Part shown: positions 599 through 6,886 of the stretch, in pieces
Position numbering within the stretch: position 1 is the first letter of the stretch
Layout: each line of letters starts with the position of its first letter
Assembly (NCBI GenBank): GCA_964440815.1
Contig: CAYTYU010000001.1
Coordinates: 5,646 to 69,645, forward strand
Length of the DNA: 64,000 bases
From: an uncultured Chitinophaga sp.
GTDB lineage: Bacteria; Planctomycetota; Phycisphaerae; Phycisphaerales; SM1A02
Direction: 5' to 3'
The notes under the pieces: model-generated
Told to the model about the DNA's origin: nothing
The model's input: the letters and a program-made list of their open reading frames with translations, nothing else
Database searches by the model: none
Made by a program: the position numbers and the translations under genes

Positions 599-1363
599 AT
601 GTCAACGACGATGCGCGCCCTCAACGCCGGGCTGTCCATGGAAGGGGTCACCATGTACCTCTTCTGGCTGTCCACCGTGGCGATGGGCGCGGGCGCCCTG
701 TATTTCTGGCTGCAGCGCAAGACCGTGCAGGTGCAGTACCAGACCGCGATGACCGTGGCCGGCATCATCTGCGCCGTCGCGGCCTTCCACTACTGGCGCA
801 TGAGCGGCATCTACCTCGAGGGCGTGGCCAGCCTGTTCGACGCAAGCGGCCAGCGGATCGCGGGCGCGACGATCAAGCAGTTCCCGACGGCCTACCGCTA
901 CATCGACTGGCTGATCACCGTGCCGCTGCTCGTCATGGAGTTCCCGCTGCTCCTGAACCTGGGCAAGAAGGGCTCCGAGCTCTTCAAGGGCCTCGTGTTC
1001 TGGTCGCTGGTGATGCTGGTGACCGCGTGGGTGGCCGAGGAGAGCCCGACCGGCAGCCAGCAGTGGTGGACGTGGTACGTCGTGAGCTGCGGCTCGTGGC
1101 TCTACATCGTCTACATGCTGTTCACCAAGGTCACCGAGGCGATGGAGACCGCTCCCCCGAGCATCCAGGCCAGCCTGAAGGCGATGCGCCTCTTCGTGAC
1201 CATCGGCTGGGTGATCTACCCCGTGGGCTTCCTGATGGCCCTCGGCGGAACCAACGGCGAGAGCTGGCGCGAGGTCTGCTACAACGTGGCGGACGTCATC
1301 AACAAGGTCTTCTTCGGCCTGGTCTGCTACCAGGGCGTGAAGGGCCTCGGAGAGCGCGCCTGA
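599..1363 (+). CDS. microbial rhodopsin, proteorhodopsin/xanthorhodopsin-like light-driven proton pump (DTE motif)
   Basis: ORF 542..1363 with seven hydrophobic helices. Helix C is RYIDWLITVPLLVMEF (Asp/Thr/Glu at the BR 85/89/96 positions). Helix F is IGWVIYPVGF. Helix G is ADVINKVFFGL, with the Schiff-base Lys and the counter-ion Asp at K-4. There is a His in AAFHYW. The start is uncertain (GTG 542; ATG 599, 611 or 638); I chose 599. Confidence 0.9.
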   Translation: MSTTMRALNAGLSMEGVTMYLFWLSTVAMGAGALYFWLQRKTVQVQYQTAMTVAGIICAVAAFHYWRMSGIYLEGVASLFDASGQRIAGATIKQFPTAYRYIDWLITVPLLVMEFPLLLNLGKKGSELFKGLVFWSLVMLVTAWVAEESPTGSQQWWTWYVVSCGSWLYIVYMLFTKVTEAMETAPPSIQASLKAMRLFVTIGWVIYPVGFLMALGGTNGESWREVCYNVADVINKVFFGLVCYQGVKGLGERA

Positions 1364-1381
1364 CCGCGTCGGCCTGAAGCA

Positions 1382-2470
1382 TTGACCTCCGCCCCGCCCA
1401 CCGCCGCCGTGCGCGAGCACCCCTCCGGGGTGCTTGCGACGGCGGCGGCGGCGGGGCGCGTCTTTGGTGGCTCGCGCACGTTCCCCTGGGTGATGCTGGC
1501 GATCGCCGCCGGGGCCGGGCTCCTGGACCATGCATGGACGGCGGCCGCCGCGCCATGGCCATTCATCGTGGCGCTGTGCGCGTTCGGCATGCCGCACGGC
1601 GCGGCCGACTGGACGGTCTCGGCACGGCTCTCCGGCCGCTCCGGGGCCTGGTCGCGGCTGGCGGGATTCGCCGGGTACCTCGCGATGATGCTCGCGAGCC
1701 TGGCGGTGATCATGTGGCAGCCGGGCGTGGCCGCGCTGCTGTTCCTCCTGCTGACGGTCTTCCACTTCGGCATGGCCGACGCGACGGCCGTGCTGGCTGA
1801 CGACGACGGCCCCGTCGCGCGCTGGGGACTGGTGCTCGGCCGCGGCCTGCTCCTGCTCTCGACGGCGTTCGCGGCCCATCCGCAGGAGGCGTGGGAGCCC
1901 TTTGCGCGGATCGGCGCGGCGCTCTCACCGTCGGCATCGCCGTGGCAGCCGGGGATCGCGGTCCTCCGTGACCTGGCGGCGGTGGGCGTGGCGGCCGGTG
2001 CGGCGCTGGCCGCGTGCAGCGCCGTCGCGCGCATCCGCGCGGGCCATCCGCGCGAGGCCGCGCTCGACCTGGCCGAGCATGCGCTGGTCGCGACGCTCGC
2101 CGCGGCCGCGGATCCGCTCTTTGCCGTGGGCTGCTTCTTCCTGGGAGTCCACGCGTTCCGGCATTCGCGGCGGCTGGCCTGCACGCGTTGCGTGATCGAG
2201 GCGCCGCACGCGCAGTCATCGCAGGGCAGGCCGGCGGCGCCCCGGCCCGGGCTCCTCGGTCGCCTGCTTCGCGTGCACGTCGCCAGCCTGCCGCTGATGT
2301 GGCCGACGGCCGCGTGCCTTGCGGTCCTCTGCTGGCTGATCGGCGGCGCGGACGCGCGCACGTTGGCGGACGCGAGCATCGCCTTCTACATGATCACCAC
2401 GCTGCCGCACCACCTGCTGGGCCTGCGCCTTCCGAGGCCCGACATGCCTCCCGCGGCACGTGCCGCATGA
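1382..2470 (+). CDS. blh: Brp/Blh family beta-carotene 15,15'-dioxygenase (retinal synthase)
   Basis: Begins 18 nt after the rhodopsin stop. It is a multi-TM protein with the conserved His contexts of the family (GMPHGAADW, VFHFGMAD, LAEHALV, GVHAFRH). The TTG start is taken from the ORF track; ATG 1493 is an alternative. Confidence 0.8.
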   Translation: MTSAPPTAAVREHPSGVLATAAAAGRVFGGSRTFPWVMLAIAAGAGLLDHAWTAAAAPWPFIVALCAFGMPHGAADWTVSARLSGRSGAWSRLAGFAGYLAMMLASLAVIMWQPGVAALLFLLLTVFHFGMADATAVLADDDGPVARWGLVLGRGLLLLSTAFAAHPQEAWEPFARIGAALSPSASPWQPGIAVLRDLAAVGVAAGAALAACSAVARIRAGHPREAALDLAEHALVATLAAAADPLFAVGCFFLGVHAFRHSRRLACTRCVIEAPHAQSSQGRPAAPRPGLLGRLLRVHVASLPLMWPTAACLAVLCWLIGGADARTLADASIAFYMITTLPHHLLGLRLPRPDMPPAARAA

Positions 2471-2845: not shown

Positions 2846-3403
2846 ATGCATCCTGCCTCGAGATTGCCGATTTCCCTGGCCCTGTTGACCATCATGGGCT
2901 GCGCCTCGCCACCATCCGGATCCGCCGCGCCATCGGCCGGGGATGCAGGTCGCGCGCCGCCGCCCCCGCGGATCAAGGCATGGATGGACCGCCTCACGGT
3001 CGCGCACGCCTACGACCCGAAGACCGGCTTCATCGTCGCCCGAGAGACGGTGTCGCTGCCGCCGATCCTCGCCGATGCGCCCACGCTGGACGCGGCGATC
3101 GCATCGGCGGGGTCCGAACGCGTGGTGATCGCGTTCGCGACCGCCGACCGGTGCGCGCCGTGCCAGCAGTACAAGCGCGATGCCCTGAACGACGTCGCCG
3201 TGATCGCGCGGCTTTCTGATCCGCGCTTCGTGCCGACCCACGTGGAGGTCGACCGTGCAGGCGAGCTCGCGGAGGCGCACCTGGGTGGGCGCGACATCCC
3301 CATGACCTACGCGCTGCGCGACGGAAGGGTGGTGGCGACGCTGGCCGGGCAGCGCTCGGGGGCGGAGCTTCTGGCGTGGCTGGACGGTCTGCCGGGGGGC
3401 TGA
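2846..3403 (+). CDS. thioredoxin-fold lipoprotein (CxxC = CAPC)
   Basis: Signal peptide with lipobox LTIMGC. The redox motif FATADRCAPCQQYK sits in a thioredoxin-like layout, and the C-terminal segment is TrxA-like (IPMTYALRDGRVVATLAG). Confidence 0.7.
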   Translation: MHPASRLPISLALLTIMGCASPPSGSAAPSAGDAGRAPPPPRIKAWMDRLTVAHAYDPKTGFIVARETVSLPPILADAPTLDAAIASAGSERVVIAFATADRCAPCQQYKRDALNDVAVIARLSDPRFVPTHVEVDRAGELAEAHLGGRDIPMTYALRDGRVVATLAGQRSGAELLAWLDGLPGG

Positions 3404-4506
3404 CGCGGGGACAGGGCCGTCGCTGCAGGTACGTCCGGCGCGGTGACCGCGGCACGCGCCCGGGCCGCCCGCTCCTCGCGCCGCGGGACGATGTCCCATG
3501 CGAGGCCGACGAGGGACAAGGCGCGCACCTCGAGGTAGGTGACGTCGAGTTCCCACCACCGGTGCCGGACGGTGCAGCAGGCGGGATCGGCGTGGTGGTT
3601 GTTGTGCCAGCCCTCGCCGCAGGCGGCGATGGCGACCAGCCAGTTGTTTCGGCTGTTCTCGTCGGTGTCGTGGTTTCGGTAGCCGAAGATGTGGGTGAGG
3701 CTGTTCACGCTCCAGGTGATGTGCCACACCAGCACCGTGCGCAGGAACACGCCCCATGCGACGACGCCGGCGGCGAAGTTCGCGGCGCCCGCGGCGTCGG
3801 TCCAGGCGAGCGCGACCGCGAACGACACGGCCGCGAAGAGCACGACCTGCGCGCCGTAGAACCAGAGCGGGCTCCACGGGTGCTTCTCGATCCACATGTA
3901 GAAGGGGTCGCGGAGGACGTCGCGCGCGTAGCGCTCGTAGTTGGCGCGGTGGTGCAGGTCGCGGTTTCGCACCAGGAGCCACCACATGTGCCCCCACAGG
4001 AAGGTCACCATCGGCGTGTGCGGGTCCTCTCGCTCGTCGCTGTGGGCATGGTGCATCCGGTGCGTGGCGATCCACCGCGCGGGCGAGTCCTCCAGGCAGC
4101 ACAGCGCGCCGACCACCAGCAGGTGCTCGAACCAGCGGGGCGTGCTGAAGCTGCGGTGGGCCAGCAGCCGGTGGTAGCCGAGCGTGATGGTCTGCCCGAA
4201 GACGTGCACGCCGGCCAGGCAGAGGACGACGGCGGTCCAGGAGAAGAATGCGGGCACCAGCGTCGCCAGGCACAGCACGTGCACCGCGACGATGGGGACG
4301 AAGTAGCGGACGAGCACCTGCCGCGGCTCGGTGGCCTCGGGGCGCTGCAGGGAAGATCGGAATGTCGTCAACGGTGGTGCCGAGGCGTGGGGAGGGGCGC
4401 TGTCGCCGGGAACGGCGCTCAGATGCGCCCTTTCAAGGACTCTACCTGCTTCACCCCGTGACGTTGCCCCACCGGCCGAGGAATGCGCCGAGATCGATTC
4501 CGTCAA
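3307..4506 (-). CDS. acyl-CoA (delta-9 type) fatty acid desaturase
   Basis: Three histidine boxes (HRLLAH, HRMHHAHSD, HNNHHA) plus the flanking TM helices typical of membrane desaturases. The true start is probably downstream of 4506, because the ORF overlaps the upstream gene by 56 nt. The low-complexity C-terminal tail overlaps the convergent thioredoxin-like gene by 97 nt. Confidence 0.85.
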   Translation of the reverse strand: MTESISAHSSAGGATSRGEAGRVLERAHLSAVPGDSAPPHASAPPLTTFRSSLQRPEATEPRQVLVRYFVPIVAVHVLCLATLVPAFFSWTAVVLCLAGVHVFGQTITLGYHRLLAHRSFSTPRWFEHLLVVGALCCLEDSPARWIATHRMHHAHSDEREDPHTPMVTFLWGHMWWLLVRNRDLHHRANYERYARDVLRDPFYMWIEKHPWSPLWFYGAQVVLFAAVSFAVALAWTDAAGAANFAAGVVAWGVFLRTVLVWHITWSVNSLTHIFGYRNHDTDENSRNNWLVAIAACGEGWHNNHHADPACCTVRHRWWELDVTYLEVRALSLVGLAWDIVPRREERAARARAAVTAPDVPAATALSPRQPPGRPSSHARSSAPERCPASVATTLPSRSA

Positions 4507-6886
4507 CCTCCCGGTCGCCGTTCAGGTCGCACGCGCACGCACCGGACGCCGGGCACGATCCCCAGGACCCGAGCAGCATGCCGAGGTCGATGCCGTCCAC
4601 CGCGCCGTCGCGGTTGAAGTCGCCGAGGTCGCCGGGACCGGTGATCCTGTCTTCGAAGGACCGAAGCGGCGGGAGTCCCAGCGCGACGCGGCCTGCGGCG
4701 CCGACCGCCGGGATGCTCTCGCCGTTGGGCAGCGGCAGCTCGGGGTGGTCGAAGGGTGCGGACTCGTCGCGGACGCGCTCGTCGGTGAGGTGGTGCATGA
4801 AGGACACCAGGGCGTCGATCTCGTGGTCGCGCAGGCCCAGCGTGACCATTTGCGGCGAGAGGTCGGCCGCGTTCGCCTCGTGGAAGTCGCCGCCGCGGTT
4901 GTAGAACGCGACGGTCTGGCGCAGCGTCGCCGATCCGCCGTTGTGGAAGTAGGGGCCGGTGAGCTCGACGTTCCGGAGCGTGGGCGTCTTGAAGGCGCCG
5001 TGCACGGCGGCATGGATGCCAGGGGGCACCGGGACCGAGGGATTGAACTCGGGCGTCGGCAGCCCAAGCTGCACGCGGCGGGTCCAGGAGAGCGGCGTCC
5101 CGGCGAACCCGGGCCCGCCGATGCCGAGGTCCTCGATCGTCGGGCGGACGCCGATGTTGTAGAAGCCCATGTCGTAGGCACCGTCGGGAAGCACCTGCAG
5201 CGTGGCGCGGTACGTGCCGTTGATGAGGACCGCATACCGGCCGACCGGGAAGAGCTCGAGCGTCAGGCGGAGCCAGGTGCCGCAGCCGCCGCCAGGCAGC
5301 GGCTCGCGGCGGACCTCGGCGACCAGCATGCCCGTGCCCTCCTCGGGGTTCATGATCGAGTTGCGCACGAGCCCGCACGCGTTCGCGGGGAACTGCGGGA
5401 GTTCATCGTCGATGATCTCCTCGCCGTCGTCGGGGTCGTTCGAGTTTCCCTGCAGGCGTATCAGTTCGATCGAGCGGCCCGAGACCTGGAAGGTGAGCGG
5501 CCGGATCGCGGGGTCGCCGTCTGCCGCGTGGTTGGCGAAGGTGACCGTGGCGGCGCGCGTCTCGGCCATCGCCAGCATCCGCTCGATGCCGCCCTGGGCA
5601 ACGTACGGCACCGGCCCGGGTGCCGGCGGCGCGGTCACGCCCATCCCGGCCCAGGTGGCCGACGTGAAGAGCGGGGTCGCGTGGCAGTCGACGCAGCGCG
5701 TGATGGGCAGGTCTTCGAACTGGCCGACGTTCATGAAGAGGTCGAGGCCAAGCAGGGCCTCCCCGTCGAGGTGGCCACCGCCGTCCTCTGGGAAGCCGGC
5801 TTCGGCGAAGCGGTCGTATGGGCTGTCGTCGGACACCAGCGTCGACTGGTAGAGCATCAGCGCGATGCCGAAGTAGAGGGGGAAGTTCGCCTCGATCTGC
5901 GTCGCGGCGCCCGGGACGGCCGGCGCGCCGTGCCATTCCGGCCGGAACGCCTGCTGGATGAGCGCGCGGTAGGTCGTTGCCAGGCCAAACCCGTCCGCCG
6001 CGGCACGCGAGCCCAGCACCGAGTCGGTGGCGCTCACGCGCTGCGCGGCGAGCGGGCGGACTTCGAGGAGGCGTCGTCCGAGGCTTCCCCAGTCGCGGCC
6101 CTCGCACGCCATCTCGACGCCGTTGTTCGCCGGGCCGACCGCCTGCGAGGCAAGGCCCGCGAAGTCAAGCCGCAGCGCGACGGGCACCAGTGCACCCGTC
6201 GCGGCATCCCACCGCTGCACGCGCGCCTGCGGGTTGGTGGGGCCGAACGGGTCGACGCCGTTGAACCACGGGTTGGCGCGGCCATCCCAGAACTGGCGGA
6301 CGTTGAACGCGGCGTTGATGACCGTGGGCGGATTGCGTCCCGTCACCTGGCGGACATTGCGGACGCCATCGTTGAAGACCGGGTCGGCGACATCGGTGCA
6401 GCGGTCCTCGCCGGTCTCGGCGTTGAGTTCGAGGAAGGCGCGGCGCAGCACGCCCTGGCTTCCGACCACGTCGTCCACGCTGCGGAGCCGGGTGCTGAAC
6501 CGCGAGTCCGGGTTGGCGAACAGCGTCGTGGGGAAGAACGCTTCCGGCTTCAGTCCACCGGGACCGACCCCCGCGTCAAAGGTGCCGTTGAACCCGGGGT
6601 GCACGGTGTTGAGCGTCCGCGGGTCGACGCCCGCGTGGCCGTGGCACGTGGCGCATGCGGTCTGCATGTCGCTGCCGAACGCGATGTCCCAGAAAAGCGC
6701 CTTGCCGAGGGCGATGGCGACGTCGCGATCGGCGACGAATTCGGCGAGCCGGGTTGGCTCGGGAATCCACACCGTTCCGAGGGCCGGGGGCGGCGTCGGC
6801 GCGGGATCGACCTTCTGGGCGGCGGACGATGCTGCGACAGCGGCCGCGACCGCGGCAGCGACAAGACGAACGACATGTGGTGCCAC
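4451..6886 (-). CDS. di-haem cytochrome c peroxidase family protein with C-terminal dockerin-like repeats
   Basis: Signal peptide; two CxxCH motifs (CATCH, CVDCH); CCP/MauG signatures FKTPTLRNV and GPYFHNGG. The tail is GDFNRDGAVDGIDLGMLLGSWG...CDLNGDREVDGIDLGAFLGRWG. Confidence 0.85.
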   Translation of the reverse strand: MAPHVVRLVAAAVAAAVAASSAAQKVDPAPTPPPALGTVWIPEPTRLAEFVADRDVAIALGKALFWDIAFGSDMQTACATCHGHAGVDPRTLNTVHPGFNGTFDAGVGPGGLKPEAFFPTTLFANPDSRFSTRLRSVDDVVGSQGVLRRAFLELNAETGEDRCTDVADPVFNDGVRNVRQVTGRNPPTVINAAFNVRQFWDGRANPWFNGVDPFGPTNPQARVQRWDAATGALVPVALRLDFAGLASQAVGPANNGVEMACEGRDWGSLGRRLLEVRPLAAQRVSATDSVLGSRAAADGFGLATTYRALIQQAFRPEWHGAPAVPGAATQIEANFPLYFGIALMLYQSTLVSDDSPYDRFAEAGFPEDGGGHLDGEALLGLDLFMNVGQFEDLPITRCVDCHATPLFTSATWAGMGVTAPPAPGPVPYVAQGGIERMLAMAETRAATVTFANHAADGDPAIRPLTFQVSGRSIELIRLQGNSNDPDDGEEIIDDELPQFPANACGLVRNSIMNPEEGTGMLVAEVRREPLPGGGCGTWLRLTLELFPVGRYAVLINGTYRATLQVLPDGAYDMGFYNIGVRPTIEDLGIGGPGFAGTPLSWTRRVQLGLPTPEFNPSVPVPPGIHAAVHGAFKTPTLRNVELTGPYFHNGGSATLRQTVAFYNRGGDFHEANAADLSPQMVTLGLRDHEIDALVSFMHHLTDERVRDESAPFDHPELPLPNGESIPAVGAAGRVALGLPPLRSFEDRITGPGDLGDFNRDGAVDGIDLGMLLGSWGSCPASGACACDLNGDREVDGIDLGAFLGRWGNVTG

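Follow-up and report, generated by a model that had tools for sequence, protein, structure and literature searches.

The stretch of DNA considered here (the window, 64,000 nucleotides in length) comprises positions 5646–69645 of contig C1 of a 2.65-Mb metagenome-assembled genome (MAG), which is 96.9% complete, distributed over 264 contigs and has a G+C content of about 72%. This genome belongs to an uncultured member of the Phycisphaerales from fresh water. The window encodes a type-1 rhodopsin (578–1363, + strand; 261 amino acids if translated from GTG 578, 254 if translated from ATG 599), recognised by Pfam family PF01036, its match to Exiguobacterium sibiricum rhodopsin (ESR) and an AlphaFold2 model. 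After a spacer of 18 nucleotides (1364–1381, + strand), which was read directly from the sequence and extends from the rhodopsin stop codon TGA to the start codon TTG of the next gene, there follows a gene for a Brp/Blh-family carotenoid 15,15'-dioxygenase of 362 amino acids (1382–2470, + strand), identified by PF15461, TIGR03753 and conserved histidines. As set out below, these two genes appear to travel as a unit among lake bacteria that have no recognisable route to the β-carotene from which Blh enzymes are expected to make retinal.

The rhodopsin open reading frame (ORF) 599–1363 (+ strand), from whose ATG all residues are counted in the following, matches Bac_rhodopsin (PF01036) with an E-value of 1.1e-41 and 143.2 bits against a cut-off of 24.6. 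In a phmmer search of all PDB chains, ESR (4HYJ) ranked first (1.4e-49) and green proteorhodopsin (GPR) next (1.2e-36), followed by blue proteorhodopsins (PRs), xanthorhodopsin-type pumps, sodium pumps and bacteriorhodopsin (BR). Helix C (RYIDWLITVPLLVMEF) pairs with RYIDWLVTTPLLLVKF and RYIDWLLTVPLLICEF in the HMMER alignments to ESR and GPR. Together with two MAFFT alignments, these place D103, T107 and E114 at BR positions 85, 89 and 96, i. e. a DTE motif, the BR sequence used for this numbering having been checked only by known landmark residues. D232 and K236 are both found within ADVINKVFFGL, where K236 pairs with K216 of BR and with the corresponding lysines of GPR and ESR, and R100 is a further key residue fixed by the alignments. 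The position of PR His75 is taken by H64, which is invariant in 120/120 homologues, and the PR-105 tuning position by L111, from which green absorption is only predicted. As a set, the HDTLEDK residues are kept in 106 of the 120 homologues. While xanthorhodopsin-type pumps carry Gly in place of Trp138 of BR, the equivalent residue is W157 in the protein studied here and Trp in all 120 homologues, which leaves no carotenoid antenna window of the xanthorhodopsin type. The AlphaFold2 model has seven long helices, a mean predicted local distance difference test score (pLDDT) of 90.3 and a predicted template modelling score of 0.86; Foldseek again returned ESR at the top, with TM-scores of 0.81/0.91, a root-mean-square deviation of 1.7 Å and 38–39% identity. 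Around the ring pocket, A143, S163 and F211 are found where GPR and ESR have Gly, Gly and Tyr, such that A143 and S163 are the larger residues. All residues singled out in the initial annotation (the His, the Asp/Thr/Glu triad, the Leu, the Asp four positions before the Lys, and the Lys itself) are thus present and align with solved rhodopsins, and the assignments of the Lys, Asp and Glu hold against ESR, GPR and BR alike. Its reading of the protein as a DTE proton-pump type holds at the levels of sequence, fold and taxonomy. A green-tuned outward proton pump of the DTE type is hence supported, with pumping, absorption maximum and chromophore as predicted properties.

The most distinctive part of the protein is an extended end of helix B together with the B–C loop (residues ~72–96, YLEGVASLFDASGQRIAGATIKQFP; 812–886, + strand), which is apparent from both the alignment and the model. 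From H64 to D103 the chain spans 39 residues, compared with 28 in ESR and 22 in GPR, which makes the B–C region 11 and 17 residues longer, respectively; a loop exceeding that of proteorhodopsin by more than ten residues had been suspected from the outset. In the model, helix B reaches residue 77, and residues 78–96 form a loop that contains two short bridge residues, at a pLDDT of 82–87. Of the 120 closest homologues, 116 have a span of 39–40 residues, and Y72, G84, F95 and P96 are invariant; the long B–C region is therefore regarded as a conserved, clade-specific character and no accident of the alignment.

The nearest loci stem from freshwater Phycisphaerales and other Planctomycetota MAGs of many lakes, whose opsins are 85–99% identical to the one described here, and the Planctomycetota host proposed on the basis of the surrounding genes is thereby borne out. 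Opsins from Akkermansiaceae and Luteolibacter MAGs (Verrucomicrobiae) follow with 81–83% identity, and that of the Verrucomicrobiae bacterium Tous-C5FEB (P0020) is 81% identical. In a phylogenetic tree of the topology (BR,(XR-like,(GPR,(ESR, clade here)))), the rhodopsin groups with Tous-C5FEB next to ESR and outside GPR and the xanthorhodopsin (XR)-like proteins; the clade has a support of 80/95, and the sister relation to ESR only a moderate one of 87/41. By this placement, the protein is a member of a freshwater Planctomycetes–Verrucomicrobia branch, and no other line of the proteorhodopsin group is closer to ESR than this one. This branch has been seen before. With the protein of Tous-C5FEB as its basis, a “Planctomycetes-Verrucomicrobia” branch near Exiguobacterium was proposed (Cabello-Yeves et al. 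2017, PMC5673642), five green-light rhodopsins were reported in freshwater Planctomycetes (Andrei et al. 2019, PMC6461901), and sequences of Planctomycetes and Verrucomicrobia were included in the ESR branch (He et al. 2023, preprint, bioRxiv 10.1101/2022.08.01.502354). The 2025 centenary review of the Planctomycetota nowhere mentions rhodopsin (PMC12673574), and a biochemical characterisation of the clade was not found in the literature. The claim that rhodopsin phototrophy is little documented in this phylum is consequently only partly right: it fits this review and the outcome for biochemistry, but not the freshwater MAG papers of 2017–2023, in which the clade already features. The rhodopsin itself is therefore ordinary, in that it adds one sequence to an already reported, biochemically uncharacterised clade. 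That clade is abundant, with thousands of homologues and more than 100 member sequences in several of the clusters formed at 90%. Nine of the 120 homologues carry Lys as donor, i. e. a DTK motif (P0047, P0053, P0082, P0084, P0088, P0091, P0092, P0095 and P0065), and they fall into one subclade nested in the DTE clade plus one separate sequence. The nested position indicates that the Glu-to-Lys switch known from ESR happened again inside the branch, and the overall distribution suggests repeated donor switches.

Upstream of the rhodopsin gene lies a non-coding region (443–577, + strand) with motifs that are conserved in an alignment of six relatives. These include a Shine–Dalgarno-like GGAGG at 566–570, conserved as GGAG(G), from which a spacer of 7 nucleotides leads to GTG 578. 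Substitutions after this codon preserve the peptide VTPILADM in the relatives, and the homologues are 260–263 amino acids long, as compared with 261 from GTG 578. For these three reasons, translation probably begins at GTG 578 rather than at ATG 599. Hence, both genes originally delimited as 599–2470 stand, whereas position 599 as the beginning of the first of them probably does not. The motif TGAATCC (~458–464) and a small inverted repeat, CCCTCGGTGGG (~537–547), are likewise conserved across six species and may be considered candidate promoter or leader elements; a sigma-70 consensus promoter was not found upstream of the rhodopsin gene. A perfect palindrome with 8-bp arms, GAAAGGAA-N6-TTCCTTTC, occupies 492–513. 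It was dismissed as an operator, as it is imperfect in the 99%-identical locus L012 and not conserved in other species.

The second gene matches PF15461 with 5.9e-36 and 124.9 bits (cut-off 28) and TIGR03753 with 117.8 bits (cut-off 95.25), so that the adjacent dioxygenase recognised in the initial annotation lies above curated cut-offs and its distance of 18 nucleotides is confirmed. Seven histidines (H72, H128, H257, H261, H299, H343 and H344) recur in 95% or more of the 64 homologues compared. For the related enzyme Blh 66A03, H21, H78, H188, H192 and H256 have been assigned to the iron site, and the floor of the cavity was described as the variable part of the family (bioRxiv 10.64898/2026.08.06.743266). 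When mapped by spacing only, H72, H128, H257, H261 and H343/H344 correspond to these iron-site residues. Since conservation is weak over the first ~40 residues, the true start of Blh may be located further downstream than 1382. Overall, the enzyme looks intact and is predicted to cleave β-carotene into retinal.

The association of the two genes extends well beyond this genome. In about 67 of 80 related loci, blh is found directly downstream of the opsin gene, and several of the others end at the opsin gene. Most close loci have a gap of 18–100 nucleotides between the two, and no terminator-like site is present in the 18-nucleotide spacer of the window. Almost none of the 80 loci, whose flanks vary, contain the genes that flank the pair in the window, and neither a third gene moving with the pair nor a transducer or signalling gene linked to the opsin was detected in any of them. 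Among close relatives, the opsins are 82–99% identical, as compared with 52–70% for Blh. The 25 genomes of the genus, which like all genomes compared here are MAGs, carry either both opsin and Blh or neither. Within those that are at least 90% complete, five (G000, G002, G006, G015 and G017; 2.5–2.9 Mb) have both genes and five (G005, G007, G011, G012 and G022) have neither. This pattern implies that both genes are acquired and lost jointly, as one two-gene unit. The three largest genomes (3.3–3.9 Mb) are among the five without it. The same arrangement is present in the Akkermansiaceae and Luteolibacter MAGs L046, L050, L053, L056 and L063, the opsin being 83% identical. There, the G+C content of the two genes (0.56–0.60) equals that of their hosts, which indicates that a transfer was not recent. 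Judged from gene order and distribution, opsin and blh hence constitute a self-contained two-gene cassette that is also found in Verrucomicrobiae, and the data point to an old transfer of this cassette between phyla (Phycisphaerales and Verrucomicrobiae) within the Planctomycetes–Verrucomicrobia–Chlamydiae (PVC) group. Six of the MAGs with the cassette (L016, L038, L039, L043, L055 and L083) were deposited under implausible names such as Singulisphaera sp. GP187, Phycisphaera mikurensis NBRC 102666 or Candidatus Kuenenia stuttgartiensis, which look like label artefacts.

Production of retinal by Blh requires a carotenoid precursor, and it is here that the hosts of the cassette present a gap. 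The window contains no crtB, crtI or crtY, in agreement with the absence of carotenoid genes reported initially. A profile search of the whole genome found SQS_PSY genes and CrtI-family genes nowhere but on contigs C7 and C39. The two SQS_PSY genes are part of an hpnC–hpnD–hpnE operon on C7 and encode HpnC (278.7 bits, above the cut-off) and an HpnD-like protein, which scores 221 bits against the HpnD cut-off of 278.6 and 152 bits in its match to cyanobacterial CrtB, and C39 holds two divergent CrtI-family desaturases. With HpnC and the HpnD-like protein as the only SQS_PSY matches, no phytoene synthase can be recognised in the genome. Equally, the lycopene cyclase models PF05834 (CrtY/CrtL) and TIGR03462 (CrtYcd) found nothing in the genome, a dedicated search for CruA/CruP not being part of this survey. 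The related genomes, of which 33–45 were tested per marker, give the same picture. PF05834 yielded no full-length match in 24 congeners and none in 33 other genomes carrying a rhodopsin of the clade, and TIGR03462 none in 40 related genomes. Exactly two SQS_PSY genes are found in 41 of 45 genomes, as adjacent hpnC and hpnD genes in the Phycisphaerales and as two separate genes in the Verrucomicrobiae, and throughout the related genomes such genes are either HpnC/HpnD or HpnD plus Sqs only. CrtI-family genes number two in 39 of 43 genomes and one or three in the others. As the same gap recurs across related genomes, it does not reflect a gap in the assembly. Genomes with a rhodopsin of this clade thus appear to encode only genes for C30 carotenoid formation by the squalene route, namely HpnCDE or Sqs plus two CrtI-family enzymes.

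Several candidates for the missing steps were considered and rejected. The partial PF05834 matches in relatives cover an N-terminal FAD fold (positions 1–147). A 443-residue ORF in G021 with such a match, a putative cyclase, has no homologue in the genome studied here. Proteins of 355–369 residues with partial PF05834 matches in G028, G035 and G025, together with their homologue on C124, belong to the geranylgeranyl-reductase family (TIGR02032) and are not cyclases. In G039, a single SQS_PSY gene is located beside the CrtI pair. It was dismissed as crtB, since its sequence fits the squalene-synthase motif, and is presumably Sqs. The whole-genome search for carotenoid genes therefore ends with C30 genes only, and the initial statement that the chromophore supply is co-encoded with the opsin is correct for the last enzyme, Blh, but not for the pathway leading to its substrate, given that neither a recognisable phytoene synthase nor a recognisable lycopene cyclase is encoded in the genome. 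Planctomycetes produce diapolycopene-derived pigments and no C40 carotenoids, and P. limnophila in particular has neither lycopene nor β-carotene (PMC9907078). A description of the precursor gap was not found in the literature on blh in connection with diapolycopene or Planctomycetes.

A telling contrast is provided by G030, a genome of the same order. At G030:C1:625205–630682 (L099, 3107–8716) it carries an XR-like DTE opsin followed by crtI, crtB, crtY and blh, which is the canonical cluster that supplies the entire C40 branch, as opposed to blh alone in the cassette described here. The opsin is only 31% identical to that of the window, CrtY is full-length (3.2e-52), and crtB constitutes a third SQS_PSY gene. 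Outside this imported C40 photosystem, G030 has nothing but HpnC/HpnD and two CrtI-family genes. Hence, on entering the order, a C40-dependent photosystem is accompanied by its own pathway, whereas the cassette supplies blh alone. The cassette also differs from other known systems. GPR (7B03, 2L6X) shares with the rhodopsin studied here the DTE motif, the equivalents of His75 and Leu105 and the fold; yet it is only ~33% identical, and an N-terminal extension resembling a signal peptide, as known from GPR, is not apparent by eye in the protein from the window. GPR photosystems are normally accompanied by crtEIBY-blh. ESR, a proton pump, is the best match in both sequence and fold and carries the same key residues H, D, T, L, D and K. 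However, its donor is a Lys (DTK) rather than a Glu such as E114 (DTE), and the rhodopsin is thus not an ESR proper. In addition, no blh accompanies the solitary ESR-type genes of Exiguobacterium and Marinococcus within 6 kb, in contrast to the adjacent blh described here. The proteins of the freshwater branch around Tous-C5FEB belong to the same clade and have been given the same prediction of a green-light proton pump; in their accessible parts, the papers on this branch are silent about a rhodopsin–blh cassette, its presence or absence as a unit and hosts devoid of crtB and cyclase.

The neighbourhood of the cassette offers no further carotenoid gene. The desaturase ORF 3307–4506 (− strand) was evaluated as a carotenoid ketolase or hydroxylase and rejected, as its best NCBIfam match is DesA-like and the gene is not conserved beside the cassette. 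We take its His boxes (HRLLAHRSF, HRMHHAHSD and HNNHHA) to be those of the acyl Δ9-desaturase type. As called, this ORF converges with that of a thioredoxin-like lipoprotein (2846–3403, + strand), with an overlap of ~97 nucleotides.

Taken together, it is very probable that the locus encodes a proton pump of the PVC branch with a co-encoded Blh, which would act on a scavenged β-ring carotenoid. The opsin would most likely be co-transcribed with blh, as judged from the 18-nucleotide gap and the conserved linkage, and Blh would split a carotenoid at its centre to yield the aldehyde chromophore. On the most conservative reading, the substrate would be β-carotene or another β-ring carotenoid obtained from neighbouring cyanobacteria or algae. 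A retinal-type chromophore would then be bound to K236 as a Schiff base and be isomerised by green light, upon which the Schiff-base proton may be transferred to D103. This residue is expected to form hydrogen bonds with H64 and T107, R100 and D232 being the remaining members of the counter-ion complex. Reprotonation by the cytoplasmic donor E114 would close the cycle, each turn of which would export one proton to the periplasm, adding to the proton-motive force of a planktonic heterotroph with a small genome. Scavenging is made plausible by cyanobacterial cultures in which Phycisphaerales with an opsin of this clade (L065, i. e. G1-WW12-04) dominate among the heterotrophs (PMC13043013). A number of points weigh against this scenario. 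Blh would be unnecessary if the cells could take up retinal itself, and the crtI-crtB-crtY-blh set of G030 indicates that scavenging is not a general solution in the order. We know of no bacterial carotenoid uptake system. MAGs are incomplete, the one studied here included, CruA/CruP-type cyclases lie outside the two models used, and pumping, absorption maximum and chromophore are extrapolated from sequence for all members of the clade. Finally, several homologues bear the JGI label “sensory rhodopsin”, which stems from automatic annotation. A photosensor or some other rhodopsin that does not pump, for which the conserved extended B–C region could serve as a partner-binding surface, is nonetheless very improbable, since the full carboxylate acceptor/donor pair and the proton-pump His are present, the nearest characterised relative pumps protons, and no signalling gene is linked to the opsin in any of the 80 loci.

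With regard to the substrate of Blh, a scavenged β-ring carotenoid ranks ahead of an unrecognised C40 route, which in turn ranks ahead of a C30 pigment of the host. The cells might make β-carotene by means of a phytoene synthase and a lycopene cyclase that escaped recognition, for example a recruited HpnD or CrtI paralogue and a divergent CruA/CruP-like flavoprotein. Such an endogenous route would be compatible with the HpnD-like protein scoring below its family cut-off while matching CrtB, and with the coverage of the cyclase models; moreover, new cyclases have repeatedly been discovered in the past. It is nevertheless unlikely, because it calls for two independent non-canonical enzymes, the HpnD-like gene sits within a canonical hpnC–hpnD–hpnE operon, the partial PF05834 matches lead to reductases or lack a homologue here, the cassette travels without a third gene and P. 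limnophila is free of C40 carotenoids. Alternatively, Blh may cleave a C30 carotenoid of the host (4,4'-diapolycopene or a close derivative) centrally to afford 3,7,11-trimethyldodeca-2,4,6,8,10-pentaenal, a ring-less C15 analogue with the conjugation length of retinal that would be attached to K236. This is an unlikely and slightly more doubtful proposal. It would be in line with the squalene-route gene set, devoid of crtB and a recognised cyclase, in every tested genome with a clade rhodopsin, with the spread of the cassette as opsin and blh only in an order where an XR-like opsin brings crtI-crtB-crtY-blh, with the diapolycopene-derived pigments of Planctomycetes (PMC9907078), and with the variable cavity floor of the Blh family. 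The three altered ring-pocket positions, two of which are bulkier (A143 and S163), would fit as well, yet these changes are small and BR also has Ser at the position of S163. Acyclic retinals reportedly support pumping in bacteriorhodopsin. On the other hand, the ESR-type opsins of Exiguobacterium, itself a producer of C30 carotenoids, are not accompanied by blh, although this gene context says little about the proposal, and we are not aware of any report of such a natural chromophore. The characterised Blh requires at least one β-ring and leaves lycopene and short apocarotenoids uncleaved, as summarised in a paper citing Kim et al.

The new elements of this locus are thus the structure of the cassette, its presence or absence as a unit, the precursor gap of its hosts and the likely GTG start at 578. 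A rhodopsin–blh cassette that persists in many species of two phyla without a visible route to β-carotene poses a testable puzzle. Conceivably, though with a low probability, the cassette is a photosystem adapted to C30-only hosts, and the whole branch, common as it is in lakes, uses the ring-less C15 analogue. If so, microbial rhodopsins would have a first natural polyene aldehyde chromophore other than retinal, and the adaptation would explain why the cassette needs neither crtB nor crtY. Use of a C30 substrate would also change the notion of what a rhodopsin chromophore is and affect estimates of rhodopsin phototrophy that are based on retinal. If, as on the most conservative reading, the precursor is scavenged, the chromophore of these bacteria would depend on a compound made by phototrophs, and a hitherto unrecognised cross-feeding link would connect the two.

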